48,339 nt of DNA from Longimicrobiales bacterium (GCA_039912685.1 JBDSPG010000145.1:1-48339), one strand, 5' to 3'; positions 9,746 to 23,475 are shown, counted from the stretch's first letter. The notes: generated by a model not told the origin, from the sequence alone. A program made the numbers and translations.

Positions 9746-10255
9746 TTGCTGCTGCAGCAGGCAGAAGTCCTGCGCGCCACTGGCGACACGTTCCGCGCGG
9801 CCGGTGATGTTTCGCGCGCGCTGCTGTTCTATGACGCAGCGATCGATCTGTATCTGCGCTCGAATCAACCGGTGTCTGCGAGTGTGGTGTGTGAACAGGT
9901 CGTGCTGCTCGCGCCGAACGGAGTGCGTGCGCGTTGCACCCTTGCCTGGATCGCGGTATTGCTTGCGCGGCAGGAGATCGTGCTGAGGCGCATTGCCGAG
10001 TATGCGGAGACCGCGGAGATCGCCGGCCAGGGCGATAGAGCGTGCCGTCAGCTTCGCTGCATGGCTGAGGAAAGCGACGAGCCGGCTGTCCTCGAAGTCA
10101 TTGCGGACGCACTGCTGCATTTGGGCGATGAACCGTCCTCGAATCGAGTCTACGCACGGATCTATGACCGCCAGCGCCCCGCCCGAGTGTATGACACAAC
10201 TGCGGATCACGCGCGCGTCGTTGCTGCCCGCCTCACCATGGCCATTTCGACCTGA
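9746..10255 (+). CDS. Hypothetical TPR-like helical protein (paralog 2; start uncertain)
   Basis: Shares RARCTLAW, LR.MAE, VL...ADALL.LGD and VY with paralog 1. Only TTG 9746 or CTG 9728/9731 are available as starts. Confidence 0.65.
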   Translation: MLLQQAEVLRATGDTFRAAGDVSRALLFYDAAIDLYLRSNQPVSASVVCEQVVLLAPNGVRARCTLAWIAVLLARQEIVLRRIAEYAETAEIAGQGDRACRQLRCMAEESDEPAVLEVIADALLHLGDEPSSNRVYARIYDRQRPARVYDTTADHARVVAARLTMAIST

Positions 10256-10328
10256 ACCTCCCCGCTGTGCAAGCCTTTCCACCCCGGTCGTCCTCCTGGT
10301 CAACAATGGCCAATCACGGAGGGTGGAC

Positions 10329-12596
10329 ATGCGGTGGATCAGGATGGCAGTACCCGGAATAATTGCACTCGCTGCTGTGGCATCACTGCCCGCCATACCG
10401 GTGCATGCACAGGGCTGGATCGAAGCGAATGGTGTGGTGCGGGAGCGGACCAGCGTATCGGTGCGCGTGCGCAATCAGATCGCAACAGTCGAAGTGGAGG
10501 AATGGTTCCGCAATCGCGGCGGCAATCTCGGCGAAGGGGATTACCTGTATCCGTTGCCTACGGGTGCGGTGTTTACAAGCTACTCGCTGTTCCAGGGCGA
10601 CAAGGAGATGCGCGGCGAAGTCCTGGATGCGAACGAGGCGCGCCGCATCTATGAGGACATCGTACGTCGCAAGAAGGATCCTGCACTGATCGAGCTGGTC
10701 GGGCATGGCCTCGTGCGTGCTCGAGTGTTTCCGATCGGTGCGGGTGAGACGCGGCGTGTCGTACTGCGCTACACGCAACCACTGTCACGCGCAGGCGATG
10801 CACTCGAGTTCCGCTATCCTGCCAATCGCGCGGCCGGGAATGCTCCGGTCAACTTCACCCTGACAGCTGAGAACGCCGGCACGTTCCGCGACGCAGTGTC
10901 ACCGACGCATGAAGTGAGCGTGCGGCGCGAGCGCGGCCAGATGGTTGTGCGTCCGACATCAACGATGCAGAGCGACTTCGCACTGCTGCTGCCGCTGTCG
11001 GAGAATGCGGTCGGCATCACGATGAGCACGCAGGGTGGCAGCTCATCCGACGACGGCTACTTCATGCTGCGTCTATCACCAGGTGCTGCTTCAGCGGCTT
11101 CACGCGTCGCGCGCGATGTGACCGTTGTTGTCGATGTATCCGGTTCGATGAGAGGCGAGAAGCTCGAGCAGGCGAAGAGCGCGCTGCGCCAGTCGCTCGG
11201 TACACTCGGCACCGATGACCGCTTCCGTCTGATCAAGTTCAGCAGTGCGAGTGATGCATGGCGTGACGACTGGGCGCAGGCGTCATCGGCCGAAATCCGT
11301 GCGGCGGGCCGGTGGGTGGACAATCTGCGCGCGGATGGCGGGACCAACATTGGTGATGCACTCCGCGATGCATTCAATACTACGTCATCAACGACGCGCC
11401 TTTCGGTGGTCGTGTTCATGACGGATGGTGTACCGTCGGTGGGCGAACAGAATCCGGAGCGGCTCGCGATGATCGCGGAGCGTGATGCAGGACGCACGCG
11501 CGTGTTCGCGTTCGGCGTCGGACAGGATGTAAATACATACCTGCTCGATCGCCTCGGAGCGTCCGGCCGCGGCAGTGCGCAGTACGTGCAGCCGGGTGAG
11601 AGCGTCGAGACTGCCCTGGGCACGCTGGCTACGAAGATCCAGTACCCCGTGCTTACCGATCTCATCATGAATGCGACGGGGGTAACGCTGCGTGAAGTGT
11701 ATCCTGGCACGCTGCCGGACCTGTTTGCGGGCGAGGATCTCGTTGTGTTCGGACGATACCGAGGTGCATCGGGCCGCGGCTCGAATGGCGTCATCATGAT
11801 CAACGGCCGCAGGTCCGGTCGTGTCGAGCGTTACTCGACGCGTGTGTCATTCGCTGGCCGCAACAACGGCAACGACTACATCGAGAAGCTGTGGGCCTCG
11901 CGCAAACTCGGTGAACTGACGCGCCGTGTGCGACTGGAGGGTCAGAACAGCGAGCTGATCGAAGAGATCCGCGCGACTGCGTTGCGCTACGGCCTGCTCA
12001 GCGAGTACACGTCATACTTCGTTGCGGAGCCGGGTGCGGCCGACCTGGCCTCTCTGACTGTAAGGGGGAGCCGGAACCCGCTGGTGCCGCGCGACCAGGT
12101 CAGCAGCCGTTCTGTTGCTCAGGGAAATGTGGCGGCCGCGCCGCCGCCGGCTACGACCGGTGCGTCTGCGGTTGCATCAGCGGAGTCGGACAGGCTGCGC
12201 CGCGAGGCGACAACGGTCGATCAGCTCGCGAAGGTTGAGAAGGCCGCTCTGCAGTTTGCGGATGCGGGTGGGGCAGGTGCTGGCGGTGGTGCTGGCTCGA
12301 CGCGCAAGGTCGTTGCCGGGCGCACGTTTGCACTGCGCGCCGGTATCTGGGAGAGCGTCCAGGAAGCTTCCGTCGGTGCAGCACCACGGGTGGTCGATGT
12401 GGTGGCGTACAGCGATGCCTACTTCGCAGTACTGCGCGCGTTGCCGGAGCTGGTGCCGTATACTGCGCTGGGCAATGTATCGGTCGCCGGCCGCCAGGTC
12501 ACGATCCGCCTGCTCGACAAGGGTGTATCCACGCTCAGTGACGCAGAGATCGTGAAGATCACGCAGCAATTCAGAGGCCCGACCACGAAACCGTGA
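10329..12596 (+). CDS. Exported VIT (vault inter-alpha-trypsin) + von Willebrand A domain protein
   Basis: GGAGGG SD, signal peptide ending VHAQ, VIT motifs (EGDYLYPLP, EARRIYEDIVR..KDPALIE, RVFPI), MIDAS DVSGSM, GGTN, FMTDG. Confidence 0.9.
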   Translation: MRWIRMAVPGIIALAAVASLPAIPVHAQGWIEANGVVRERTSVSVRVRNQIATVEVEEWFRNRGGNLGEGDYLYPLPTGAVFTSYSLFQGDKEMRGEVLDANEARRIYEDIVRRKKDPALIELVGHGLVRARVFPIGAGETRRVVLRYTQPLSRAGDALEFRYPANRAAGNAPVNFTLTAENAGTFRDAVSPTHEVSVRRERGQMVVRPTSTMQSDFALLLPLSENAVGITMSTQGGSSSDDGYFMLRLSPGAASAASRVARDVTVVVDVSGSMRGEKLEQAKSALRQSLGTLGTDDRFRLIKFSSASDAWRDDWAQASSAEIRAAGRWVDNLRADGGTNIGDALRDAFNTTSSTTRLSVVVFMTDGVPSVGEQNPERLAMIAERDAGRTRVFAFGVGQDVNTYLLDRLGASGRGSAQYVQPGESVETALGTLATKIQYPVLTDLIMNATGVTLREVYPGTLPDLFAGEDLVVFGRYRGASGRGSNGVIMINGRRSGRVERYSTRVSFAGRNNGNDYIEKLWASRKLGELTRRVRLEGQNSELIEEIRATALRYGLLSEYTSYFVAEPGAADLASLTVRGSRNPLVPRDQVSSRSVAQGNVAAAPPPATTGASAVASAESDRLRREATTVDQLAKVEKAALQFADAGGAGAGGGAGSTRKVVAGRTFALRAGIWESVQEASVGAAPRVVDVVAYSDAYFAVLRALPELVPYTALGNVSVAGRQVTIRLLDKGVSTLSDAEIVKITQQFRGPTTKP

Positions 12597-13129
12597 ACGA
12601 ACCGTATCCAGTGCCCGCACCGATCGACTGGTCGAAGCTGTACGCTGAGACGTTTGACGATCTCGCCCGCTATCTGCACCGCAAGGTGTGGGATGGCGAG
12701 CGCGCGCACGAGCTTGCACAGGAGGTTTTTGTGCGGGCACTGGGACACGGTGGAGAGATGCCACCGGAACGGCCGCGGGCGTGGCTGTTCACGATCGCCG
12801 CAAACCTCGCGCGGGATGAATCGAAGATGGTGTTGCGTCGACGGAAGCACCTTGCGCTGATCCAGGGCGGTGCGGCAACAAGCACCGAGATGGACCCGCT
12901 CGAGCGCATGGAGCGCGAGGCGAAAGAAGCAGCGGCGCGGCGCGCGCTCGAAGAGCTGAATGAGCGTGATCGTGAAGTGCTGTTGTTGTGGGATGCCGGA
13001 TTGAACTATCAGGAGATCGCGGAGCAGGCGGGTCTCGCCGTCGGCGCCATCGGTACCACGCTATCGCGTGCGAGGCGTCGCCTGGTTGAAGCACATACCG
13101 CGCTGGAGGCACGAAATGCAGCACATTGA
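12593..13129 (+). CDS. ECF-family RNA polymerase sigma factor
   Basis: AHELAQEVFVRA, RAWLFTIAANLARD (region 2); LNERDREVLLL, YQEIA, GTTLSRARRRL (region 4). GTGA overlap with the vWA gene. Confidence 0.93.
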   Translation: MNEPYPVPAPIDWSKLYAETFDDLARYLHRKVWDGERAHELAQEVFVRALGHGGEMPPERPRAWLFTIAANLARDESKMVLRRRKHLALIQGGAATSTEMDPLERMEREAKEAAARRALEELNERDREVLLLWDAGLNYQEIAEQAGLAVGAIGTTLSRARRRLVEAHTALEARNAAH

Positions 13130-14309
13130 TGAAGCCATGTTGCACGAGTATCTCGATCGCAGCGGCGAGACGGATACAGCGCTGGACGCGGTGGAGACGC
13201 ATCTCGCCTCGTGCGGCGCGTGTCGCGCGAAGCTCGATGAGGCGATTGCACTGCGTGCGGCGGCGGGTGATATCCTGCGGGCTGCGTCCCCGGTGACGCG
13301 CGTGATGCCGCCGTTCGCGGAGATCGCAGCGCGCAGTGGGGCAGATAGTTCGGCGCGTGTAGCGCCGTTAATGGTCAAGAAGCGTAGCCGCACGCGTGAC
13401 CTGGCGTGGGCCGCGACCGTTGTGCTCGCACTGGGCGCGGGCTGGATCGCGAAATCGATGTATGGTTCGGATGTGGCAGTTGAGGTTGCAGCGACACCGA
13501 AGCAGAATGCGGCTGATGCTGCAGTACCGCCGGCGACACAGCCTGCGGTCGCGGAGACTGCGCCTGCCGAGGCGGCGGGGAATGCGGCTCCGCCGTCTGC
13601 ATCGCAGGACGTGCGCACGCGGTTGGAGGCTGTGTCCCCGCCGATGGTGGCAAGTGCGCCACTCCCTGTAGCTCCGCCTGTCACCGCGCCGGCCGCTTTT
13701 GCGCAAACATCGATACGGGGCTCGCGGGAGGATGCGAACGCAAAGGCAAGCGACCTGGGCACACTGGTCGTTACAGGCGATCGCAACCCGCTGGTGCCGC
13801 GTGATCAGGTGAGCCGCCGAAGCATCGTGACGGGCGAGATAGCCGCTGCATCTGCCGATGATTCGTACGCTGTACGTCAGCTGCTCCGCGATGCGGACTG
13901 GCAGAGTGTATCGGCGGACTCGGCCGCGCGGGCAGCGGGTGGCGTCATCGTTCGCGCGCGCGGTCTACGCGTGCTCGACTACGCAGTTGCGGCAGAGGTC
14001 GTCGGCAAACGTGTGCGTGTGCGACAGATCACGCAGCAGGGTGACACAGTGATGACTGTACAGCTGTCACGCGCTCCAATGGCAGTGATTGGATATGCGC
14101 CGTCGGGCGGTACGACCGCGACGAATCAACTGGCCGAAGGCAGGCGCCTGCCGCTCTACGGAACGCTGGAACGCGCCGAAGCCAGTGGCTGGCATTTTCA
14201 GTCGGTGCGGTGGTGGGACGACAGGCTCGTTGTATTTGCAGGGAAGACCCGGGCATCGATCATTGAAAGAGAACTGGAGCAGTCGGGGCCAGGCGGAACC
14301 CGGCCGTAA
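13116..14309 (+). CDS. Zinc-finger (zf-HC2) transmembrane anti-sigma factor
   Basis: LHEYLD...VETHLASCGAC (HxxxCxxC), TM segment LAWAATVVLALGAGW, Pro/Ala-rich linker; overlaps the sigma gene end. Confidence 0.85.
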   Translation: MQHIDEAMLHEYLDRSGETDTALDAVETHLASCGACRAKLDEAIALRAAAGDILRAASPVTRVMPPFAEIAARSGADSSARVAPLMVKKRSRTRDLAWAATVVLALGAGWIAKSMYGSDVAVEVAATPKQNAADAAVPPATQPAVAETAPAEAAGNAAPPSASQDVRTRLEAVSPPMVASAPLPVAPPVTAPAAFAQTSIRGSREDANAKASDLGTLVVTGDRNPLVPRDQVSRRSIVTGEIAAASADDSYAVRQLLRDADWQSVSADSAARAAGGVIVRARGLRVLDYAVAAEVVGKRVRVRQITQQGDTVMTVQLSRAPMAVIGYAPSGGTTATNQLAEGRRLPLYGTLERAEASGWHFQSVRWWDDRLVVFAGKTRASIIERELEQSGPGGTRP

Positions 14310-14336: not shown

Positions 14337-16430
14337 TTATTCCGTGGCATCCTTCGGCTTCAAGTACGTCTCGAGCCAACCGAGCATGGTATCCCACCAC
14401 ACCATCGCATTCGCCGGTTTCAGGACCCAGTGCCCCTCATCGGGGAAATACAGCAGCCGCGATGGGAGGCCGCGACGGCGCATGGTTGTGAATGCCGCGA
14501 GTCCCTGCTCCAGCGGCACGCGATAATCGAGGCCACCGTGCACAACGAGCAGCGGCGTCGACATGTTCTTCGCGTTTGCAGCAGGATTCCACTTTTCGTA
14601 ACCGGCCGGATTCTCCCACGGCGTTCCGCCATATTCCCACTCGGGGAACCACAGCTCTTCCGTGGCGCCATACATCGAGCGAGTATCGTAGATCCCGTCG
14701 TGTGTGATGAGCGCGTCGAAGCGATCTGTATGACCGTTGATCCAGTTGATCATGTACCCGCCGTATGACGCACCTGCGGCACCGAGCCGGTTCTTGTCCA
14801 TGAACGGATTGACAGCGAGCGCGTGATCGAGGCCGTTCATTATGTCCGTGTACACCTTGCCACCCCAGTCACCACTGATCTCGTCCGTGAACTTCTGGCC
14901 GTATCCGGTACTGCCTCGCGGATTCACGAGTACGGCGACGTACCCCGGTGCAGTGAACATGTTAGGGTTCCAGCGATAGCTCCACGAATTGCCCCAGGCA
15001 CCCTGCGGGCCGCCGTGAATCAGCAGTACGACGGGATACTTGCGGGTCGCATCGAAGTTTGGTGGCTTGACGATGAATCCCTGAACGCGCTGTCCTTCCG
15101 CGCCCTCGAACCAGAAGGGTTCGGCCGGCTGCAAAGCGAGTTGCCCAAGAAGCGCGTCATTCGCGTGTGTGAGCTGACGCAGAATTTTCCCCTGCGCATC
15201 CATCGCATACAAATCGACAGGGTGTGCAGCGGATTGCCGGGCTACCACGATTGTCTTGCCGTCGGCGCCGATCGCAACAGCGTTGTTGTAGCCGTCGACC
15301 GAGAGGGGCGTGATTGCACCGGTCGCCACCGTAATGCGATGCAGTGTGTGGTTGAGTCGTTCCGGTGCGAGAAACCAGATCGACTTCGAGTCGGCGGACC
15401 ACTGGAAGAAGTCGGGCGAAAGATCGAGCTGTTCGGTAAGCGTCCGAACCTGCCCGGTCTTGCGATCGTACAGTGAGATGCGCGCGCGATCCGATTCGAA
15501 TCCTGGCCGCACCATTGCGAGATATGCGATGTAGCGACCGTCCGGCGAGTAGTGCGGCGCAACATCGTTCGCACGCGATTCCGTGAGACGCTTCGCCTCC
15601 CCGCCATTCGTCGGCGCGAGCCATACGTCGTTGCCCGTGCCGACCATGGTCTGCGCATCGGTGTTACGAACAAACGCGATCTCGGAATTGTCAGGGCTGA
15701 TATCGTAGTCGAGGAACCCCCCGAGTGCGATCGGCGGCGCGTCATATGCACCCGGCGTCACGTCCGTGGATTTCTGTGTCGCTATGTCGAGCACGAACAC
15801 ATGCGAGCGGAGTCCGTCTTCCCACTCATCCCAATGCCGGTAGCCCACCTCGTCGTAAATCTTTGCTTCCGATTTCGACGTCGCAAGCTTATCCAGCCTC
15901 GAAGCGAGCTCATCGCCCGCGGGTTTGACACCGCTCGTGAACAGGACCTTCGTTCCATCCCGCGACCAGACCAGCGGACCGGATACGCCGCCGTCGAGTG
16001 CCGTGAGCTTGCGCGCATCACCGCCGCCTGCGGGCATCACCCACACCTGAGGTCCGGCTTCGCGCGAGGAAACGAAGGCGAGAAGCTTCCCGTCGGGGGA
16101 CCATGCCGGTGAATTACTGGAGCCCGTCGCACTCCGCGTCCGCTGGGTCGGCTCACCGCCCGTAGCGGGCACGGCCCAGATATCGGTCTTCGACTTGTAT
16201 GTTGTCAGGTCGTACCTTGTTTGCGTGTACGCGACGGTTTTACTGTCCGGGCTGAGGGCAGGGTCTCCGACTCGTGTGAGGGACCACAGGTCCCTCGACG
16301 TCATGGCGCGCTTCGCGGCCTGTCCGCCGGCGACCGGGGAGCCGAGAGGCGTCTGGGCGGTGGCGCCGCCGACCACAGTCGCGGTGAGGAAGAGGGCGGC
16401 CACAAGGCGGCCACGGGTGTGTCTGCTCAT
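14337..16430 (-). CDS. S9 family (prolyl oligopeptidase / acylaminoacyl peptidase-like) exported peptidase
   Basis: Signal peptide, PD40 propeller repeats, IHGGPQ, GASYGG nucleophile motif, DYRVP, DEGHW. Confidence 0.93.
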   Translation of the reverse strand: MSRHTRGRLVAALFLTATVVGGATAQTPLGSPVAGGQAAKRAMTSRDLWSLTRVGDPALSPDSKTVAYTQTRYDLTTYKSKTDIWAVPATGGEPTQRTRSATGSSNSPAWSPDGKLLAFVSSREAGPQVWVMPAGGGDARKLTALDGGVSGPLVWSRDGTKVLFTSGVKPAGDELASRLDKLATSKSEAKIYDEVGYRHWDEWEDGLRSHVFVLDIATQKSTDVTPGAYDAPPIALGGFLDYDISPDNSEIAFVRNTDAQTMVGTGNDVWLAPTNGGEAKRLTESRANDVAPHYSPDGRYIAYLAMVRPGFESDRARISLYDRKTGQVRTLTEQLDLSPDFFQWSADSKSIWFLAPERLNHTLHRITVATGAITPLSVDGYNNAVAIGADGKTIVVARQSAAHPVDLYAMDAQGKILRQLTHANDALLGQLALQPAEPFWFEGAEGQRVQGFIVKPPNFDATRKYPVVLLIHGGPQGAWGNSWSYRWNPNMFTAPGYVAVLVNPRGSTGYGQKFTDEISGDWGGKVYTDIMNGLDHALAVNPFMDKNRLGAAGASYGGYMINWINGHTDRFDALITHDGIYDTRSMYGATEELWFPEWEYGGTPWENPAGYEKWNPAANAKNMSTPLLVVHGGLDYRVPLEQGLAAFTTMRRRGLPSRLLYFPDEGHWVLKPANAMVWWDTMLGWLETYLKPKDATE

Positions 16431-16551
16431 TCGATACCCCTGCTGATTGTGTGGATCCACGATGATGGGGGGGCGAGCGTCCGCCGGGCAAGGCGCGGGA
16501 TGGGGGCGAGTGACAGCCTGCCATGGCGTGGAACGTGCCAAGAGGGTCCTC

Positions 16552-17268
16552 ATGTATGACCTGACTCGGCTGTCCCTCTCCGCAATGACGGACTGCAGTA
16601 CTCATCTACGTCGTCTTGGCCAGCGCGCTTCGTCGATGGAGGAAGTGGCGGGGGAAGTCGCGCGCTTTCTTTACGACAATATCGGAGTGGGTGACCAGCG
16701 AGCGTGCGCGCTTGCAAGAGTCTACAAGACGCATCCCCTGGGTCAGCTTCCCGAAGAACTTCAGGATTTCGCGCGGAGTGGGGCCGGCACCGTAGGACTG
16801 CATCAGCTCACGAAATGCCTGACGCTGCTAGCGACCGTGGGTGATGAGGCGGCGTGGAACGACAGACGAAGCTCGCGCTTGCATCAGGCGATTCCGTTGC
16901 CGAGTCCCCAGACAGTTGAGCAGGCGCCAATGGTGGCTCAACTCATGAGACAGCTCGGGCTCGACATAGCCCAGGTACTATCGCCCGACCCGGCTCTGCT
17001 GATCGACATGTCGCAGACCACATTCAATGTGTTCCATGTACAACACGCACTAGGCAGTCCCTTCATTCCCGCACAGGATTTCGTAACGACACATGGGATT
17101 GCATCGGTTCTCGGCTTCGGCGGCGTTTTCCCGACGGGGGACCTCTTCTGTGTCATCCTGTTTTCGCGCGCCGCGATTCCGCCCACAACGGCCGAGTTGT
17201 TCAAGCCTCTGGCGCTCGCGGTCAAAGTCGCGCTGGTTCCGTTTGCGGGCGAGCAGGTCTTCGCGTGA
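16552..17268 (+). CDS. Hypothetical cytoplasmic protein, possible sensor partner of the downstream kinase
   Basis: ATG 16552, 238 aa with globular composition; GTGA overlap with the kinase start. Confidence 0.75.
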   Translation: MYDLTRLSLSAMTDCSTHLRRLGQRASSMEEVAGEVARFLYDNIGVGDQRACALARVYKTHPLGQLPEELQDFARSGAGTVGLHQLTKCLTLLATVGDEAAWNDRRSSRLHQAIPLPSPQTVEQAPMVAQLMRQLGLDIAQVLSPDPALLIDMSQTTFNVFHVQHALGSPFIPAQDFVTTHGIASVLGFGGVFPTGDLFCVILFSRAAIPPTTAELFKPLALAVKVALVPFAGEQVFA

Positions 17269-19627: not shown

Positions 19628-20017
19628 ATGAAGTCCTTGATGAAGGTGTTGGCAGTGGTAGCGGCCACGGCAGCGGGGAGTGCGACCGGTTGCGCCACTG
19701 CGAGCGGCCCGAAGACGTGCTCGCTGGTTGGCTGCGAGGCAGGCCTCGCCATCGAGGTGCGCGGTGACCGCGGCGGCGATGTCACTGTGAAGGTGACCGC
19801 GGCTGACGGTCAAACCAAGTCGTTCGAATGCGACGCGGACGTATCCGGCTGCAGCACGTTCATTCCCGACTTCATGCCGGAGAATGTGACTGTCACGGTG
19901 ACGAAGAAGGAGGGCAACTTCGTCAAGTCATACGCCGTGGCCTACAACAACGTGCATCCGAATGGCGACGACTGTCCGCCGGTGTGCAGGCAGGGACACA
20001 TCGACGTATTGCTCTAG
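19628..20017 (+). CDS. Small Cys-rich lipoprotein
   Basis: GGAGGAGG SD, lipobox ATGC, six further Cys (TCSLVGC, EC...GC, DCPPVC). Confidence 0.75.
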   Translation: MKSLMKVLAVVAATAAGSATGCATASGPKTCSLVGCEAGLAIEVRGDRGGDVTVKVTAADGQTKSFECDADVSGCSTFIPDFMPENVTVTVTKKEGNFVKSYAVAYNNVHPNGDDCPPVCRQGHIDVLL

Positions 20018-20061
20018 GCGCGCTCGTTCAGTCCATCCACCACCAACCAACCAGGACCCCC

Positions 20062-23000
20062 ATGCGCCATTCCGCACCCTCGACTTTCCAAACCATCGCT
20101 CTCGCAACGATCGTCGCCTTTGCAACGGCATTACCGTGTGCATCCCAGTCGAAAGCCGATTCGACTAAAACGAACAAGAATCTTCCGCTGGAAGTGGCGA
20201 GAACGATTCATTTGTCGACGGACGAGGGGTCGTGGATGTCGCTGGACGTGAGTCCGGATGGACGCACGATCGTGTTCGATCTGATGGGCGATTTGTTCAC
20301 GGTGCCGATCACGGGAGGAACGGCGACGCAGCTGACGAAGGGGATGGCGTTCGATGGTCAGCCGCGGTACAGCCCAGACGGCAGCAAGGTGGTGTTCGTA
20401 TCCGACCGGAGCGGTGGCGACAATCTGTGGACGCTGGATATCGCGAAGGGTGACACGACGCAGATCACGAAAGGGAACGGCAACGCATGGATGTCACCGG
20501 ACTGGACGCCGGACGGCAAGTACCTGGTGGCGTCAAAGGGCGAAACGAGGCTCGGGACCGTGCGGCTGTGGATGGGTCACATCGCGGGCGGTGGCGGCAC
20601 GCAGATCCACAAGACGCCGGTATCGCTGAAGACGAACGGCGCCGCGGTGTCGCCGGATGGCCGCTATATCTGGTATGCGCGTCGCAACAACAGCTGGGAC
20701 TACAACGCAGAAATGCCGCAGTACCAGCTCGGCGTATATGATCGCGAGACCGGGCAGGACTTCGAGCGCACCGCACGGTATGGGTCCGCATTCCGTCCGA
20801 CGTTGTCGCCCGACGGCAAATGGCTCGTGTACGGATCGCGTGACGAGGACAAGACGGGTCTGCGCATTCGCGATCTCGCATCGGGTGATGAGAAGTGGCT
20901 CGCATATCCGATCCAGCGTGATGACCAGGAATCCATCGGTGATCGCGATGTTCTTCCAGGAATGTCGTTCACGCCGGACTCGAAGGAGGTGGTGGCATCA
21001 TACGGCGGCAAGCTTTGGCGCATCCCGATCGACCGCAGTGCGTCGATTCCGGTGCCGTTCCATGTCGAGGCGGACATGCTGCTTGGGCCGAAGGTCGAGT
21101 TTTCCTATCGGGTCGATGACGGCCGCGAGTTCAACATCAGGCAGATCCGCGACGCTGTGCCTTCGCCTGACGGCAGGCAGCTGGCATTCGTCGCACTCGA
21201 TCGTCTGTATGTAATGGACTACCCCGCAGGAGCGCCCCGCCGTATCACGACGAACAATGTCACGGAAGCAATGCCGTCGTGGTCACCGGACGGTCAGTGG
21301 CTCGCGTATGTCACATGGACGATCGACGGCGGCAGCATCTACAAGGTGCGCGCGGCAGGTCGGTCGGCCCCGGTCAAGCTGACTAATACGATCGCGACTT
21401 ATCAGGAGCCGGTCTGGTCGCCAGCAGGTGATCGCATTGTTGCCGTGCGCGGCTCCGCACAGGCTTTCCGCGAGTCGACCGGCACAATTGCGCCCGGCGT
21501 TGCGACCGACCTGATCTGGATTCCATCGGCCGGCGGTGCTGCCACCATGGTCGCGCCGATGGACGGCCGCGACTATCCGCATTTCACGACCGACGCGAAA
21601 CGCATTTTCATGTATTCGTTCACGAAGGGTCTCGTTTCGATCCGCTGGGACGGATCTGATGAAAAGGCCCACGTGAAGATCGTCGGCACAACCCGACCGG
21701 GCGCAACCGCGCCGAGCACGCCGGACTTTATCATGATGGCACCGGCGGGTGATCGCGCACTCGCGCTGCTCAACAGCGAGCTGTACGTCGCAACCGTACC
21801 GTACGTGGGTGGTGCAGTTCAATCCATTTCGGTGGCGAGTCCCGAGAACGCAGCATTCCCCGCGAGAAAGTTGACTGTCATTGGCGGCCAGTTCCCCGCA
21901 TGGGAGAAAGATGGGAAGAAGGTCCACTGGTCGATCGGCAATGCGCACTTCGTGTACGATCTCGACCGCGCGCAGATGTTCGACGACTCCGTGAAAGCCG
22001 TGACGGATGCGAAGGCCAAACGCGATGCCTTCCTTTCAGGCGACACGGCTGCAGCGAGAGCGGACAGCGTTACGCGCGCCGACAGCGTGGCGAGGATGGA
22101 CAGCACTGCGAAGGCGTTGGCCGCGAAGGCGGACTCCGTGAAGAAGAAGAAGTACGAGCCGGCAGAGCACCGCATCCTGGTCAAAGCAGCGCGTGACATT
22201 CCAACCGGGACGGCTGTTTTGCGAGGCGCGCGGGTCATCACAATGAAGGGCGACGAAGTCATCGAGAACGCCGACATCATTGTGAAAGACAATCGCATCC
22301 AGGCGGTCGGAGCGAGGGGCAGTGTCACTGTCCCCGCAGATGCGCAGGTGATCGATGTGACGGGCAAAACAATCACGCCCGGGTTTGTGGATACACACGC
22401 GCACATGTGGCCCGACTGGGGGCTCCACAAGGAACAGGCGTGGATGTACCTCACGAACCTCGCATACGGGATAACGACGACGCGCGATCCGCAGACGGCC
22501 ACGACGGATGTGCTCACATACAGTGACCTGGTTGATCACGGAGAGATCCTCGGTCCCCGCGTGTACTCAACGGGGCCTGGCGTGTTCGGCGATTACGTCG
22601 AGGATCCGATCACCGACCTCGAGGCAGCGCGCAACATCCTGAAACGCTACAGCGAGTACTACGACACGAAGACGATCAAGATGTACATGGCGGGGAACCG
22701 TCAGCAGCGCCAGTGGATCATTACTGCGGCGAAAGAACAGAAGCTCATGCCCACGACCGAGGGCGGGCTCATGTTCAAGTACAACCTGACGATGGCGCTG
22801 GATGGATATCCCGGTCAGGAGCACGCCATTCCGGTCTATCCGTTCTACAGTGACGTCACACAGCTGTTCGCCAAGAGCGGCATTACATATACACCAACGC
22901 TGATCGTGTCGTACGGCGGCCCGTTCTCCGAGAATTACTGGTTCGAGCATGAGAACGTGCACGGCGACGCCAAACTGTCACATTTCACTCCGCACGCGGA

Positions 23001-23475
23001 ACTGGACTCCAAGGCGCGCCGTCGCAAAGACGGCTGGTTCATGGATGACGAGTATGTATTCCAGGAGCATGCAGCCGGACTGAAGTCGATTGTCGAGGCG
23101 GGCGGCAGGATCGGTGTAGGCGGCCATGGTGAGCTGCAGGGCATGGGCTACCATTGGGAGATATGGATGGTACAATCCGGTGGTATGCGACCGCTCGACG
23201 CGTTGCGGGCAGCGACCATCATGGGTGCTCAGGGCATCGGCCTCGGCGATGACCTCGGTTCTATCGAGCCGGGCAAGCTCGCGGATCTCGTGATCCTGGA
23301 TGCGAATCCGCTCGAGAACATCAAGAACACGAACACCATCCGGTGGGTAATGAAGAACGGTCGTCTCTATGAGGGCGACACGCTGAACGAGACATACCCG
23401 CGTCAGAAGAAGCTCGATCTTGGCGACTGGATTGTTGCAGACCCGGCATCACAGGTGAAGGCGGGAATCAAATAG
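20062..23475 (+). CDS. Amidohydrolase family protein with N-terminal TolB-like (PD40) beta-propellers
   Basis: Signal peptide, repeated SPDG blades, PGFVDTHAH metal motif, GSIEPGKLADLVILDANPL. Confidence 0.92.
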   Translation: MRHSAPSTFQTIALATIVAFATALPCASQSKADSTKTNKNLPLEVARTIHLSTDEGSWMSLDVSPDGRTIVFDLMGDLFTVPITGGTATQLTKGMAFDGQPRYSPDGSKVVFVSDRSGGDNLWTLDIAKGDTTQITKGNGNAWMSPDWTPDGKYLVASKGETRLGTVRLWMGHIAGGGGTQIHKTPVSLKTNGAAVSPDGRYIWYARRNNSWDYNAEMPQYQLGVYDRETGQDFERTARYGSAFRPTLSPDGKWLVYGSRDEDKTGLRIRDLASGDEKWLAYPIQRDDQESIGDRDVLPGMSFTPDSKEVVASYGGKLWRIPIDRSASIPVPFHVEADMLLGPKVEFSYRVDDGREFNIRQIRDAVPSPDGRQLAFVALDRLYVMDYPAGAPRRITTNNVTEAMPSWSPDGQWLAYVTWTIDGGSIYKVRAAGRSAPVKLTNTIATYQEPVWSPAGDRIVAVRGSAQAFRESTGTIAPGVATDLIWIPSAGGAATMVAPMDGRDYPHFTTDAKRIFMYSFTKGLVSIRWDGSDEKAHVKIVGTTRPGATAPSTPDFIMMAPAGDRALALLNSELYVATVPYVGGAVQSISVASPENAAFPARKLTVIGGQFPAWEKDGKKVHWSIGNAHFVYDLDRAQMFDDSVKAVTDAKAKRDAFLSGDTAAARADSVTRADSVARMDSTAKALAAKADSVKKKKYEPAEHRILVKAARDIPTGTAVLRGARVITMKGDEVIENADIIVKDNRIQAVGARGSVTVPADAQVIDVTGKTITPGFVDTHAHMWPDWGLHKEQAWMYLTNLAYGITTTRDPQTATTDVLTYSDLVDHGEILGPRVYSTGPGVFGDYVEDPITDLEAARNILKRYSEYYDTKTIKMYMAGNRQQRQWIITAAKEQKLMPTTEGGLMFKYNLTMALDGYPGQEHAIPVYPFYSDVTQLFAKSGITYTPTLIVSYGGPFSENYWFEHENVHGDAKLSHFTPHAELDSKARRRKDGWFMDDEYVFQEHAAGLKSIVEAGGRIGVGGHGELQGMGYHWEIWMVQSGGMRPLDALRAATIMGAQGIGLGDDLGSIEPGKLADLVILDANPLENIKNTNTIRWVMKNGRLYEGDTLNETYPRQKKLDLGDWIVADPASQVKAGIK

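Follow-up and report, generated by a model that had tools for sequence, protein, structure and literature searches.

A transporter-type TonB-box region shared by a VIT-vWA protein and an anti-sigma factor suggests a possible link between an ECF sigma module and TonB in a Longimicrobiales bacterium

Introduction

Why would a vWA protein and an anti-sigma factor of one operon carry nearly the same 33-aa peptide? The question is raised by a window of 48,339 nucleotides (the whole stretch of DNA analysed) from a Longimicrobiales bacterium, whose preliminary description, made from the sequence alone, called the peptide TonB-box-like and proposed a signalling module around it, in which the vWA protein might act as decoy or co-sensor and which could report TonB occupancy or proton-motive force. 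A TonB box is the short docking sequence by which outer-membrane transporters grip the TonB motor, and its presence in two proteins of a sigma factor operon would bear on how the sigma factor is switched.

Operon genes and protein architecture

The operon encodes a VIT-vWA protein, an ECF sigma factor and an anti-sigma factor (Table 1). Its neighbours include an ABC1 kinase and an S9 peptidase, and no transporter gene adjoins it among the neighbour genes examined. The vWA protein (database copy P0007, 755 aa) starts with a signal-peptide-like N-terminus (MRWIRMAVPGIIALAAVASLPAIPVHAQG) and carries the MIDAS motif (DxSxS) as DVSGS at residue 269. Its assignment to the VIT-vWA proteins follows from PF08487 (68.9 bits) and PF13768 (73.2 bits), and on the 867-aa frame Pfam places VIT at 152-260 and VWA at 375-530. 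As well, equivalog membership in TIGR03788 (sortase target), the nearest NCBIfam model, was rejected, its score of 279.9 bits falling short of the 551.65 cut-off. For the vWA C-terminal domain, the Pfam search gave no family.

The anti-sigma factor (database copy P0006, 397 aa) runs from a zf-HC2-like N-terminus through a single transmembrane segment (residues 96-114 of 397) and an Ala/Pro linker to the motif, which is followed by a C-terminal domain. The zf-HC2 match is weak (E 6.5e-4; 20.2 bits, under the Pfam cut-off of 22.2), and the orthologue in genome G437 reaches 23.3 bits. The sequence holds HLASCGAC, with the H-x3-C-x2-C arrangement, and the N-terminal part is homologous to anti-sigma genes located after the sigma gene across the family. 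With sigma domains above cut-offs and one transmembrane segment, the two genes form an ECF sigma/zf-HC2 anti-sigma pair. Since the motif is located at residue 213, it is periplasmic, provided that the zinc finger is cytoplasmic. An alignment of 18 sequences gives the C-terminal domain the pattern W...LGG...GL.V...VRV.QRL..G..LEL.Q ... LP.D.L..LL. No Pfam family was found in any of these 18 orthologues, no PDB sequence matched, and hhalign indicated no likeness to TonB_C. The ESM Atlas returned DUF4367-, LolA- and MucB_RseB-like folds (scores 0.84-0.87, TM 0.5-0.65), which are leads only.

Table 1. Features of the operon, with positions counted from the first letter of the window
Feature	Position	Strand	Remarks
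Possible promoter piece	10268..10284	+	TGCAAGCCTTTCCACCC; common to the motif-bearing TonB-dependent transporter (TBDT) gene; lead only
VIT-vWA protein gene	10329..12596	+	755 aa from ATG; open frame begins 9993; Pfam VIT and VWA_3/VWA
vWA copy of the TBDT-derived segment	12042..12140	+	DLASLTVRGSRNPLVPRDQVSSRSVAQGNVAAA; degenerate TonB box DLASLTVRG, then linker RNPLVPRDQVSSRS
Conserved C-terminal domain of the vWA tail	12300..12593	+	~100 aa; alignable in 12 family orthologues and across the class
ECF sigma factor gene	12593..13129	+	Pfam Sigma70_r2, Sigma70_r4_2; NCBIfam sigma70-ECF superfamily above cut-off
Anti-sigma factor gene	13116..14309	+	397 aa; weak zf-HC2 match, hydrophobic segment, N-terminal homology across the family
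Anti-sigma copy of the segment	13752..13850	+	DLGTLVVTGDRNPLVPRDQVSRRSIVTGEIAAA; TonB box DLGTLVVTG, linker RNPLVPRDQVSRRS, first plug-strand-like stretch IVTGE
C-terminal periplasmic domain of the anti-sigma factor	13851..14306	+	Conserved within the family; alignment of 18 sequences

The shared segment

The two copies agree at 22/33 residues and 63/99 nt, as the preliminary description had counted for the residues, with 12 codons differing synonymously and 11 non-synonymously. The 11-aa core RNPLVPRDQVS is identical; 29/33 of its nucleotides are the same, and the four differing codons are all synonymous. BLASTP of the whole vWA protein against the whole anti-sigma factor found the shared segment at E = 5e-9 and every other segment at E >= 0.98, and therefore the two proteins are otherwise unrelated. 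Both copies lie within Ala/Pro-rich stretches, again as described. These flanks, the signal-peptide-like N-terminus of the vWA protein and the one transmembrane segment of the anti-sigma factor fit an unstructured periplasmic stretch, in which a TonB box would be accessible. The anti-sigma DLGTLVVTG is of the TonB box type (D/E)-x-(L/I/V)-V-V-T-(A/G), and the vWA DLASLTVRG is degenerate, with R replacing T in LTVRG.

Over 33 codons, dN/dS was 0.30/1.56 between the vWA and anti-sigma copies, 0.30/0.91 between the anti-sigma copy and the TBDT described below, and 0.54/0.92 between the vWA copy and this TBDT. The identical core shows 3-5 codon differences per pair, against 6.75 expected under a random draw from the genome's codon usage. 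Purifying selection on the motif peptide, previously proposed from the synonymous changes, is thus supported.

A third copy in a transporter and the origin of the motif

The search that had been suggested for RNPLVPRDQV in the bacterium's own genome (3.1 Mb, 82% complete) was run in six frames with up to 3 substitutions and gave four matches: two are the operon copies, the third is exact and lies in a TBDT, and the fourth, with 3 substitutions, is of no interest. This transporter, the C5 TBDT, carries ELEALVITGDRNPLVPRDQVSSRSIVTGETIDKLP between its CarboxypepD_reg domain (CarbopepD_reg_2, 61-148) and Plug (158-254). The motif is therefore a TonB box together with the box-to-plug linker, which bears out its first reading as a TonB-box region. 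Compared with this genuine transporter box just before Plug, the anti-sigma copy agrees at 24/33 aa and the vWA copy at 18/33 aa. On the C5 TBDT, the alignments to the NCBIfam BtuB and CirA models begin at residue 141-142 (model position 26-28), which is the start of ELEALVITG; BtuB's own Ton box lies at about that place. The box regions of the remaining 12 Plug-domain matches of the genome differ from the motif, and the C5 TBDT gene is located on a separate contig from the operon with unrelated neighbours.

NPLVPRDQV had been likened to the junction from box to plug in TonB-dependent receptors of Gemmatimonadota, and it is exactly that: of 400 genomes searched in the phylum, 5 others have the exact 9-mer in orthologous TBDTs, and it is invariant across 8 orthologous TBDTs from three families. 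A profile built from TBDTs only matched 28 of all 73 family genomes searched. Outside the genus, 24 of the 25 matched genomes have matches solely in full-length or contig-truncated TBDT frames, and the 25th has a single weak chance match. Against this profile the anti-sigma copy scored 51.5 and 57.9 bits and the vWA copy 44.8 and 48.3 bits in two runs, the higher values with a 32-column profile. Among the same 73 genomes, the vWA and anti-sigma copies of the long motif are confined to this genus.

The copies vary in extent and preservation. Two relatives, G444 and P0011, retain extra plug sequence beyond the window's copy (...PRDQVASRSVVSGQTIERL and ...DRNPLIPRDQVSSKSIVAGETIDKLP, respectively), which fits a DNA copy of a transporter gene and not convergence. 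The vWA protein of G444 keeps the post-box linker LIPRDQVASRS, with the box strand gone. In the sister species G423 the vWA core is deleted and the anti-sigma copy has decayed to VITADRTALIGRDQAAAKSDVTG (10.4 bits), and P0008 and P0009, the closest database representatives, are without the long motif. The vWA site of the motif is a hypervariable linker among family orthologues. Judged from these comparisons, the C5 TBDT is the donor of both copies, because the motif is conserved in TBDTs of three families and is elsewhere found in this genus only, in hypervariable linkers and partly decayed in sisters.

The possible promoter piece is also common to the operon and this TBDT gene. TGCA-N3-6-TTCCACCC has 4 occurrences in the genome, two of which lie 45-60 nt upstream of start codons, those of the vWA gene and the C5 TBDT gene, and both of these are kept in G423. 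TTCCACCC alone is not enriched in the genome (96 observed vs 122 expected).

Short TonB boxes in orthologous operons

Co-occurrence of the motif in orthologous vWA/anti-sigma pairs, an expectation of the preliminary description, failed for the 33-aa motif outside the genus and held in another form: a short canonical TonB box, LxLxE(V/I)VVTG, is present in both the vWA and the anti-sigma orthologues of six further genera, which argues against a meaningless one-off. Among the 19 family operons with both proteins usable, the box is present in both proteins in 7, in neither in 12 and in one only in none, as scored by a regular expression written after the matches were seen and, for the window's own pair, by a separate pattern. 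A TonB-box-like strand is the best or top segment common to the vWA tail and the anti-sigma factor in 7/19 operons. For instance, both proteins have ALQLQELVVTGQ in G438 and LRLDEVVVTG in G437, and the G448 pair reads LALEKVVVTG and LALEEVVVTG. A second profile, built solely from 19 TBDT boxes, scored up to 15 bits in positive operons and at most 1.4 bits in all 12 negatives, against a background of 5 stretches with at least 8 bits in the long frames of this genome (1.58 million residues). Compared with those long frames the box is ~200-fold enriched (6 and 7 strict matches vs 0.024 and 0.034 expected).

On a tree of the sigma factor and the vWA tail, the double-positive state occurs at 6 separate places. 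Five of these have a sister without the full box in both proteins (G423 keeps a decayed anti-sigma copy alone), and the sister at the sixth, G428, has its anti-sigma sequence cut off. The DNA pattern for LxLxExVVTG gave 12 matches in 5 double-box genomes, of which 5 belong to the operon and 7 to TBDTs, where they lie precisely between the NTE and the Plug; the reversed control gave 0. The two short boxes of G438 agree at 36/39 nt, according to a by-eye count from the alignment, and have rare codons in common. The 33-aa motif thus appears to be this genus's form of a feature that recurs elsewhere in the family, in several genera.

In other families of the class, 27/32 operons are boxless, 2 (same genus) have both boxes, 3 have the vWA box only and 0 the anti-sigma box only, and the coupling of the two boxes is looser than within the family. 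Since most operons are boxless (12/19 in the family as well as these 27/32), the module works without a box. In family f4, three genera agree in the tail position of the vWA box (74-80); among database representatives of the vWA tail, 7/150 have a tail box. Moreover, G402 has a paralogous sigma/anti-sigma pair whose anti-sigma factor ends in TonB_C, and a tonB-like gene lies upstream. The anti-sigma clade is therefore also tied to Ton-type strand pairing with the polarity reversed.

Comparison with known systems

As in FecA-FecR-FecI, FoxA and HasR/HasS, the ECF sigma factor here would be held by a single-pass anti-sigma factor with a periplasmic part. In the Fec model, as passages of PMC12036975 present it, TonB force exerted via FecA's box removes the C-terminal domain of FecR and starts a cleavage cascade, so that the signal to the periplasmic part depends on the TonB box and the Ton motor; here such dependence is proposed from sequence. 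The FecARI type has the box on the transporter, which signals via its STN domain to a FecR-type anti-sigma factor, whereas here the box is on a zf-HC2-type anti-sigma factor itself and on a co-encoded soluble VIT-vWA protein. Pfam at E <= 1e-5 found no STN domain on the C5 TBDT, only CarboxypepD_reg, CarbopepD_reg_2 and Plug, and with no transporter gene adjoining the operon, a FecARI-type transporter was rejected. So was a FecR-type anti-sigma factor (FecR/DUF4880 N-terminus, FecR C-terminal domain), as only the weak zf-HC2 match and a family-less C-terminal domain are present.

The short boxes have the same sequence as those of NTE-type (SusC/Oar-like) transporters: LRLDEVVVTG of G437 compares with the experimentally validated box 82-DEVVVTG-88 of Bt1763, located after a CarboxypepD_reg-like NTE (passages of PMC7782687). 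Unlike these transporters, the carriers here are not outer-membrane barrels, and neither Plug nor barrel follows the box. Non-transporter proteins with a TonB box are exemplified by the bacteriocins colicin B and pyocin S2, whose own functional boxes bind TonB directly, as described in passages of PMC5692591. However, those boxes are N-terminal on toxins imported from competing cells, and here they are internal or in the C-terminal tail of the cell's own regulatory proteins. An ECF sigma factor associated with a vWA-containing partner recalls ECF289 of the ECF classification 2.0, where von Willebrand domains (with DUF3520) are fused to the anti-sigma factor, unlike the separate VIT-vWA protein here; the passages of PMC7826278 on that group do not mention a TonB box. 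In our literature search, no anti-sigma factor came to light that carries a TonB box of its own.

Possible roles of the shared box

The reading to which we incline, without great assurance, is that of an ECF sigma module coupled to TonB through docking sites on the vWA protein and the anti-sigma factor, the motif here having been copied from the C5 TBDT. The TonB box and box-to-plug linker have entered the periplasmic linkers of a secreted VIT-vWA protein and a membrane-anchored anti-sigma factor, where each box could expose a strand for the C-terminal domain of TonB or a TonB paralogue, to be bound by beta-augmentation as in transporters. The sequence comparisons establish what the motif is and where it came from, the purifying selection on it, its recurrence and its joint presence in the two proteins; TonB binding and the steps downstream of it we infer. 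The sigma switch would be linked to the Ton motor with no need for the signalling domain of a transporter, in one of two ways: TonB may pull on the anti-sigma and vWA proteins until their C-terminal domains separate or unfold and anti-sigma proteolysis begins, or the transporter, the vWA protein and the anti-sigma factor may be three competitors for the same TonB. As TonB and the anti-sigma factor are both anchored in the inner membrane, a simple pulling geometry would require a third anchor. The patchiness of the long motif within its genus, the boxless majority of operons, the looser coupling outside the family, the few vWA tails with a box among database representatives and the degenerate box of the vWA protein here also speak against this reading.

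A different partner is unlikely in our estimate, although several observations would suit it. The strand would then dock on a multi-TonB_C protein, the LolA/DUF4367-like C-terminal domain of the anti-sigma factor, a periplasmic protease or the vWA C-terminal domain (as a reciprocal handshake or an autoinhibitory pseudo-ligand), with the transporter's exposed box competing as the signal. The vWA protein of G444 lost the box strand yet kept the linker, and the TBDT-invariant part is NPLVPRDQV, not the strand. At variable positions the operon's two boxes are closer to each other than to the TBDT boxes of the same genome, as in G438, where both proteins share their box vs ALSLGEIVVTGT in the TBDT. 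The family is rich in 600-950 aa frames that contain 2-4 TonB_C stretches, and the anti-sigma C-terminal domain leads to LolA/DUF4367/RseB-like folds. However, these fold matches are mere leads, the domain has no likeness to TonB_C, and the short boxes cannot be told apart from the TonB boxes of TBDTs, for which the TonB C-terminal domain is, to our knowledge, the sole established partner.

We regard as quite improbable that a ~100-nt transporter piece, copied by gene conversion or illegitimate recombination into two tolerant linkers, is now a decaying neutral relic and that the short boxes are chance or neutral copies. The hypervariable Ala/Pro linkers, the decay states varying among sister species and the G438 boxes with rare codons in common, which fit a recent DNA copy, would agree with it, as would searches with the two motif regions, which among 5.8 billion proteins matched the window's own only. 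On the other hand, dS is near saturation with low dN, the 11-aa core stays identical despite its codon differences, the both-or-neither state holds in 19/19 operons of the family, the tree showing 6 separate origins, and both the enrichment over long frames and the constant tail position in f4 speak against neutrality. By analogy with pyocin S2 and colicin B, which bind TonB directly through their own box (passages of PMC5692591), the vWA protein could instead be a cargo or ligand whose tail threads a C5-type transporter for the TonB pull, with the anti-sigma box as a secondary mimic sensing the traffic. The class sample, with the vWA box alone in 3 operons and the reverse never, and the nearest NCBIfam models of the VIT-vWA part, cell-surface sorted proteins all under cut-offs, lean that way. 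Nevertheless, this is very improbable to us: there was no sign of a secretion route or of linkage to a transporter, with the C5 TBDT gene on another contig; the box is in the C-terminal tail, unlike the N-terminal boxes of bacteriocins; and in other genera the short boxes correspond to SusC-type boxes in general, not to one transporter.

The preferred reading, coupling to TonB, suggests from the boxes on both proteins a gene switch wired directly to the TonB motor. Its boldest form, transporter-free mechanical signalling, is doubtful, though we rate it above these alternatives. TonB would grip both boxes, and a pull driven by the proton-motive force would part the C-terminal domains or unfold that of the anti-sigma factor, leading to regulated proteolysis and release of the ECF sigma factor. 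In this genus, where both boxes would have been replaced by the extended box region of one transporter, the transporter, the sensor and the anti-sigma factor would compete for one TonB, and the switch might also read transporter load.

Shared Motif of the vWA Protein and the Anti-Sigma Factor

The operon encodes a VIT-vWA protein (755 aa, with a signal-peptide-like N-terminus and a DxSxS motif), an ECF sigma factor and an anti-sigma factor that has a single membrane segment and, at its N-terminus, a weak likeness to zf-HC2; since the sigma gene overlaps both neighbours by a few bases, the three genes form one operon. The two motif stretches translate as the preliminary description had it and are identical at 22 of 33 residues, 12 of their 23 differing codons being synonymous. 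The 11-residue core RNPLVPRDQVS is likewise confirmed as identical, with all four differing codons synonymous. Both proteins had been called otherwise unrelated, which agrees with a whole-protein BLASTP that aligned the motif segment alone (E = 5e-9; next 0.98). A search of the motif regions against 5.8 billion proteins, with harsh E-values and length limits, missed decayed copies and returned the window's own proteins alone; the decayed copies were recovered by alignment.

The VIT-vWA part is nearest to the NCBIfam models TIGR03788, TIGR04477, MSEP-CTERM and PEP-CTERM, all far under cut-offs, which are models of sortase/exosortase-sorted cell-surface proteins. Where such proteins have a C-terminal sorting signal, this lineage has a linker-box-domain tail instead. 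As well, an S9 prolyl-oligopeptidase with PD40 repeats is encoded convergently with the anti-sigma gene end, and a 1222-aa PD40 and amidohydrolase protein farther along; both are periplasmic peptidase-like.

Positions of the operon, motif copies, upstream elements and related frames
Feature	Sequence	Position	Strand
VIT-vWA gene	window	10329-12596	+
VIT-vWA part	window	9993-12596	+
ECF sigma gene	window	12593-13129	+
Anti-sigma gene	window	13116-14309	+
Motif copy, vWA	window	12042-12140	+
Motif copy, anti-sigma	window	13752-13850	+
S9 prolyl-oligopeptidase	window	14337-16601	-
PD40 and amidohydrolase protein	window	19807-23475	+
TGCA-N3-6-TTCCACCC	window	10268-10284	
TGCA-N3-6-TTCCACCC	G000:C5	10846-10862	
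TGCA-N3-6-TTCCACCC	G000:C295	near 685	-
TGCA-N3-6-TTCCACCC	G000:C361	near 43610	
Transporter-flanking frame, 304 aa	G000:C5	14249-15160	+
Transporter-flanking frame, 786 aa	G000:C5	8221-10581	-
Paralogous operon L027	G402:C104	18456-21394	
Frames of L027	L027	54-995, 999-1544, 1420-2268	+
Multi-TonB_C protein, 719-aa frame	G423:C43	2601-3803	
Multi-TonB_C protein, 698-aa frame	G180:C25	29125-30213	

Transporter Copy and Origin of the Motif

A six-frame scan of the whole assembly (3.1 Mb, 415 contigs, 82% complete) revealed the core a third time, as an exact copy in a 1139-aa open frame of contig C5. This frame possesses CarboxypepD_reg (61-148), Plug (158-254) and a long barrel part, and thus encodes a TonB-dependent transporter. 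Its motif, ELEALVITGDRNPLVPRDQVSSRSIVTGETIDKLP, is placed exactly between the N-terminal extension (NTE) and Plug, the position of the TonB box in NTE-type transporters, which bears out the suggestion that NPLVPRDQV resembles a box-to-plug junction of such receptors. The NCBIfam BtuB and CirA models align from residue 141-142 of the transporter and from model positions 26-28, which we take to be the place of the BtuB Ton box. In the NTE-type transporter Bt1763, the TonB box DEVVVTG comes after the N-terminal extension, and cells in which the box is deleted no longer grow on levan (PMC7782687). The C5 copy shares 24 of 33 residues with the anti-sigma copy and 18 of 33 with that of the vWA protein, and the box regions of the remaining 12 Plug matches in the genome differ from it. 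The transporter gene is flanked by a 786-aa frame and by one of 304 aa that is truncated at the contig end, and neither matched a Pfam family at an E-value of 1e-5 or better; a transporter-associated lipoprotein could be encoded by the downstream frame.

Across 400 further genomes from the phylum, a degenerate DNA pattern for NPLVPRDQV matched once in each of five, always in an orthologous transporter, as its attribution to such receptors would predict. Moreover, a 32-column profile built from transporter copies only and run on 73 family genomes matched in 28; outside the window's genus, the matches were confined to full-length or contig-truncated transporter frames in 24 of 25 genomes, the 25th (G460) giving a single weak chance match. 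Within vWA/anti-sigma operons the long motif is confined to the window's genus, where it exists in several states: the G444 vWA protein retains GGRLIPRDQVASRSVVSGQTIERL with the box strand absent, the G423 vWA protein has the core deleted, and the G423 anti-sigma motif has decayed to VITADRTALIGRDQAAAKSDVTG. A 283-aa metagenomic representative (P0011), 55% identical to the vWA tail, carries PVSLRGDRNPLIPRDQVSSKSIVAGETIDKLP, a transporter-like stretch longer than the window's vWA copy that extends to GETIDKLP, i.e., into the ETIDKLP of Plug. In orthologous vWA proteins, a hypervariable linker occupies the site of the vWA copy. Because profile matches elsewhere are confined to transporters and the states of the motif to one genus, the transporter is the donor, a piece of whose gene was copied into the vWA and anti-sigma genes before the genus radiated.

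The element TGCA-N3-6-TTCCACCC has only four occurrences in the genome. Two precede the start codons of the vWA and C5 transporter genes by 45-60 nt, both conserved in G423, and the one on C295 lies ~70 nt upstream of an unannotated, unrelated gene. As a possible shared promoter element, it faintly hints at common regulation of the vWA protein and the transporter. A search for a sigma-type promoter common to the operon and the transporter gene gave only this short element, which is a lead.

Short TonB-Box-like Strands in Other Operons

The operon itself is widespread: of the 38 loci examined in the family, 23 have a vWA tail next to a sigma/anti-sigma pair, and elsewhere in the class a sigma gene adjoins the vWA tail at 33 of 34 loci. 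When the vWA tail and the periplasmic portion of the anti-sigma factor were compared within each family operon, the best common segment in several other genera was a TonB-box-like strand. The question whether orthologous pairs share the motif is thereby answered in two ways: the long motif does not extend beyond the window's genus, and short boxes are present in the operons of other genera.

TonB-box-like segments common to the vWA tail and the anti-sigma factor in operons of related genomes
Genome	vWA tail	Anti-sigma factor
G438	ALQLQELVVTGQ	ALQLQELVVTGQ
G437	LRLDEVVVTG	LRLDEVVVTG
G448	LALEKVVVTG	LALEEVVVTG
G380	ISLSEIVVTG	LSLDEIVVTA
G409	VSLESITVSG	VALEEVVVEG
G443	VALESMVVTG	VQLNAIVVTG

In these box-bearing operons, the likeness is limited to the 10-13 box residues, and the box position is variable in both proteins, that of the G448 anti-sigma factor being within a C-terminal-domain loop. 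Among the 19 family operons with both proteins usable, window included, a box is found in both proteins in seven, in neither in 12 and in one only in none (nominal Fisher p 2e-5, relatedness ignored and the box definition drawn up after matches had been seen). A second profile, built from 19 transporter boxes alone, set the two classes apart, with positives of up to 15 bits and all 12 negatives at or below 1.4 bits; two positives are weak, the G409 vWA protein (-1.1 bits) and the window's vWA protein, which it missed. Across the long frames of the window's genome, 1.58 million residues in all, no more than five stretches scored 8 bits or higher. In the five double-box genomes searched, the LxLxExVVTG DNA pattern matched 12 times (reversed control, 0), of which five were in the operon and seven in transporter frames, each precisely between the CarbopepD_reg_2 and Plug domains.

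On the sigma and vWA-tail tree, the double-box state is present in six separate places, at five of which neither protein of the sister has a full box; in G423, sister of the window's genome, the decayed anti-sigma copy alone remains, and in G428, sister at the sixth place, the anti-sigma factor is cut off. Judging from these comparisons, the boxes of the two proteins appear to be gained and lost together. Outside the family, 32 operons (five anti-sigma frames assigned by position alone) comprise two with both boxes (one genus), three with the vWA box only, none with the anti-sigma box only and 27 with neither. Among 150 vWA-tail representatives from the database, 7 have a tail box. Some of the tallies take in genomes G412, G413, G416, G440 and G057, flagged unpublished, on which no claim rests.

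The conserved (T/S)G..AV...E anchor of vWA tails was considered as an ancestral box site and rejected, as a hydrophobic strand directly precedes it in only 3 of 69 anchored tails. PRDQ is not a general feature of vWA tails (5 of 205 sequences). In three vWA tails of the family-f4 type (L119, P0016 and P0039), PRDQ stands directly before the AG..AV anchor with a TonB box farther downstream, which may be an echo of the transporter linker, or chance.

Proposed Working and Alternatives

TonB boxes are known from outer-membrane transporters and from bacteriocins hijacking them. To our knowledge, TonB-dependent gene regulation proceeds solely via a transporter's signalling domain, and the TonB C-terminal domain is the sole established partner of such a strand. 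Given the box sequence and this sole partner, the operon, in which two proteins of a single sigma switch have candidate TonB boxes in periplasmic linkers, where they are predicted to be exposed, is most likely an ECF sigma module coupled to the Ton motor, one that would need no transporter signalling domain. Either TonB would pull, or three carriers (transporter, vWA protein and anti-sigma factor) would compete for it; as TonB and the anti-sigma factor are both inner-membrane proteins, pulling would need another anchor. In the window's genus, the extended box region of one transporter has seemingly taken the place of the generic box, which suggests that the module competes with that transporter or reads it out. 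A parallel in function would be the Fec model, in which force from TonB removes the C-terminal domain of FecR and cleavage then starts (PMC12036975).

Several observations speak against Ton coupling: most operons are boxless, sister species have the long motif in decayed form, the coupling is looser outside the family, and the box definition is post hoc. As for the partner, the genome carries tonB beside exbB (C302), three more TonB_C proteins (contigs C126, C76 and C57) and one TolA. Complex prediction paired the C-terminal domain of the C302 TonB (26-row alignment A3) with the motif segment of the anti-sigma factor (10-row alignment A4) and gave 0.31, 0.32 and 0.29 at a mark of 0.32, with controls at 0.00, 0.01 and 0.00, which weighs neither way on binding. 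That a different protein binds the strand is unlikely. The motif copies are old (pairwise dS 0.9-1.6), and their dN of 0.30-0.54, an estimate from a short segment and with wide error, denotes purifying selection in this lineage, which upholds the suggested selection on the peptide; in the identical core, 3-5 codons differ per pair versus 6.75 expected under random codon choice. That the motif is a neutral relic is somewhat less probable still. Least probable is that the vWA protein is transporter cargo.

The anti-sigma C-terminal domain showed no likeness to TonB_C in profile comparison, and nothing credible was obtained for it from a PDB sequence search and Pfam. A paralogous operon of genome G402, L027, contains a tonB-like gene (TonB_C 237-312), an ECF sigma gene and a 283-aa anti-sigma homologue with TonB_C as its C-terminal domain (207-281). 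This sigma/anti-sigma pair is the same wiring reversed; its anti-sigma factor could itself grip TonB boxes, with a polarity opposite to that of the window's operon. Long family frames with at least three consecutive TonB_C-like stretches are common, and such proteins are possible alternative partners of TonB boxes.

A full-text literature search returned no paper with an anti-sigma factor bearing its own TonB box, and the portions of the literature found place TonB boxes in transporters and bacteriocins only. The parts of PMC7826278 on vWA-linked anti-sigma factors describe fusions only and leave the box unmentioned, and its supplementary text may cover this gene context. The operon would thus be a variant of TonB-dependent signalling not described before in the literature found. 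If the anti-sigma factor and a co-encoded sensor carry TonB boxes of their own, an inner-membrane regulatory protein is open to direct action by the Ton motor, which, if true, would be a simpler, so far undescribed coupling of envelope energy or transporter traffic to transcription. Moreover, the repeated, coupled gain of boxes in two unrelated proteins of one operon shows the spread of a docking motif of 10-30 residues between genes.
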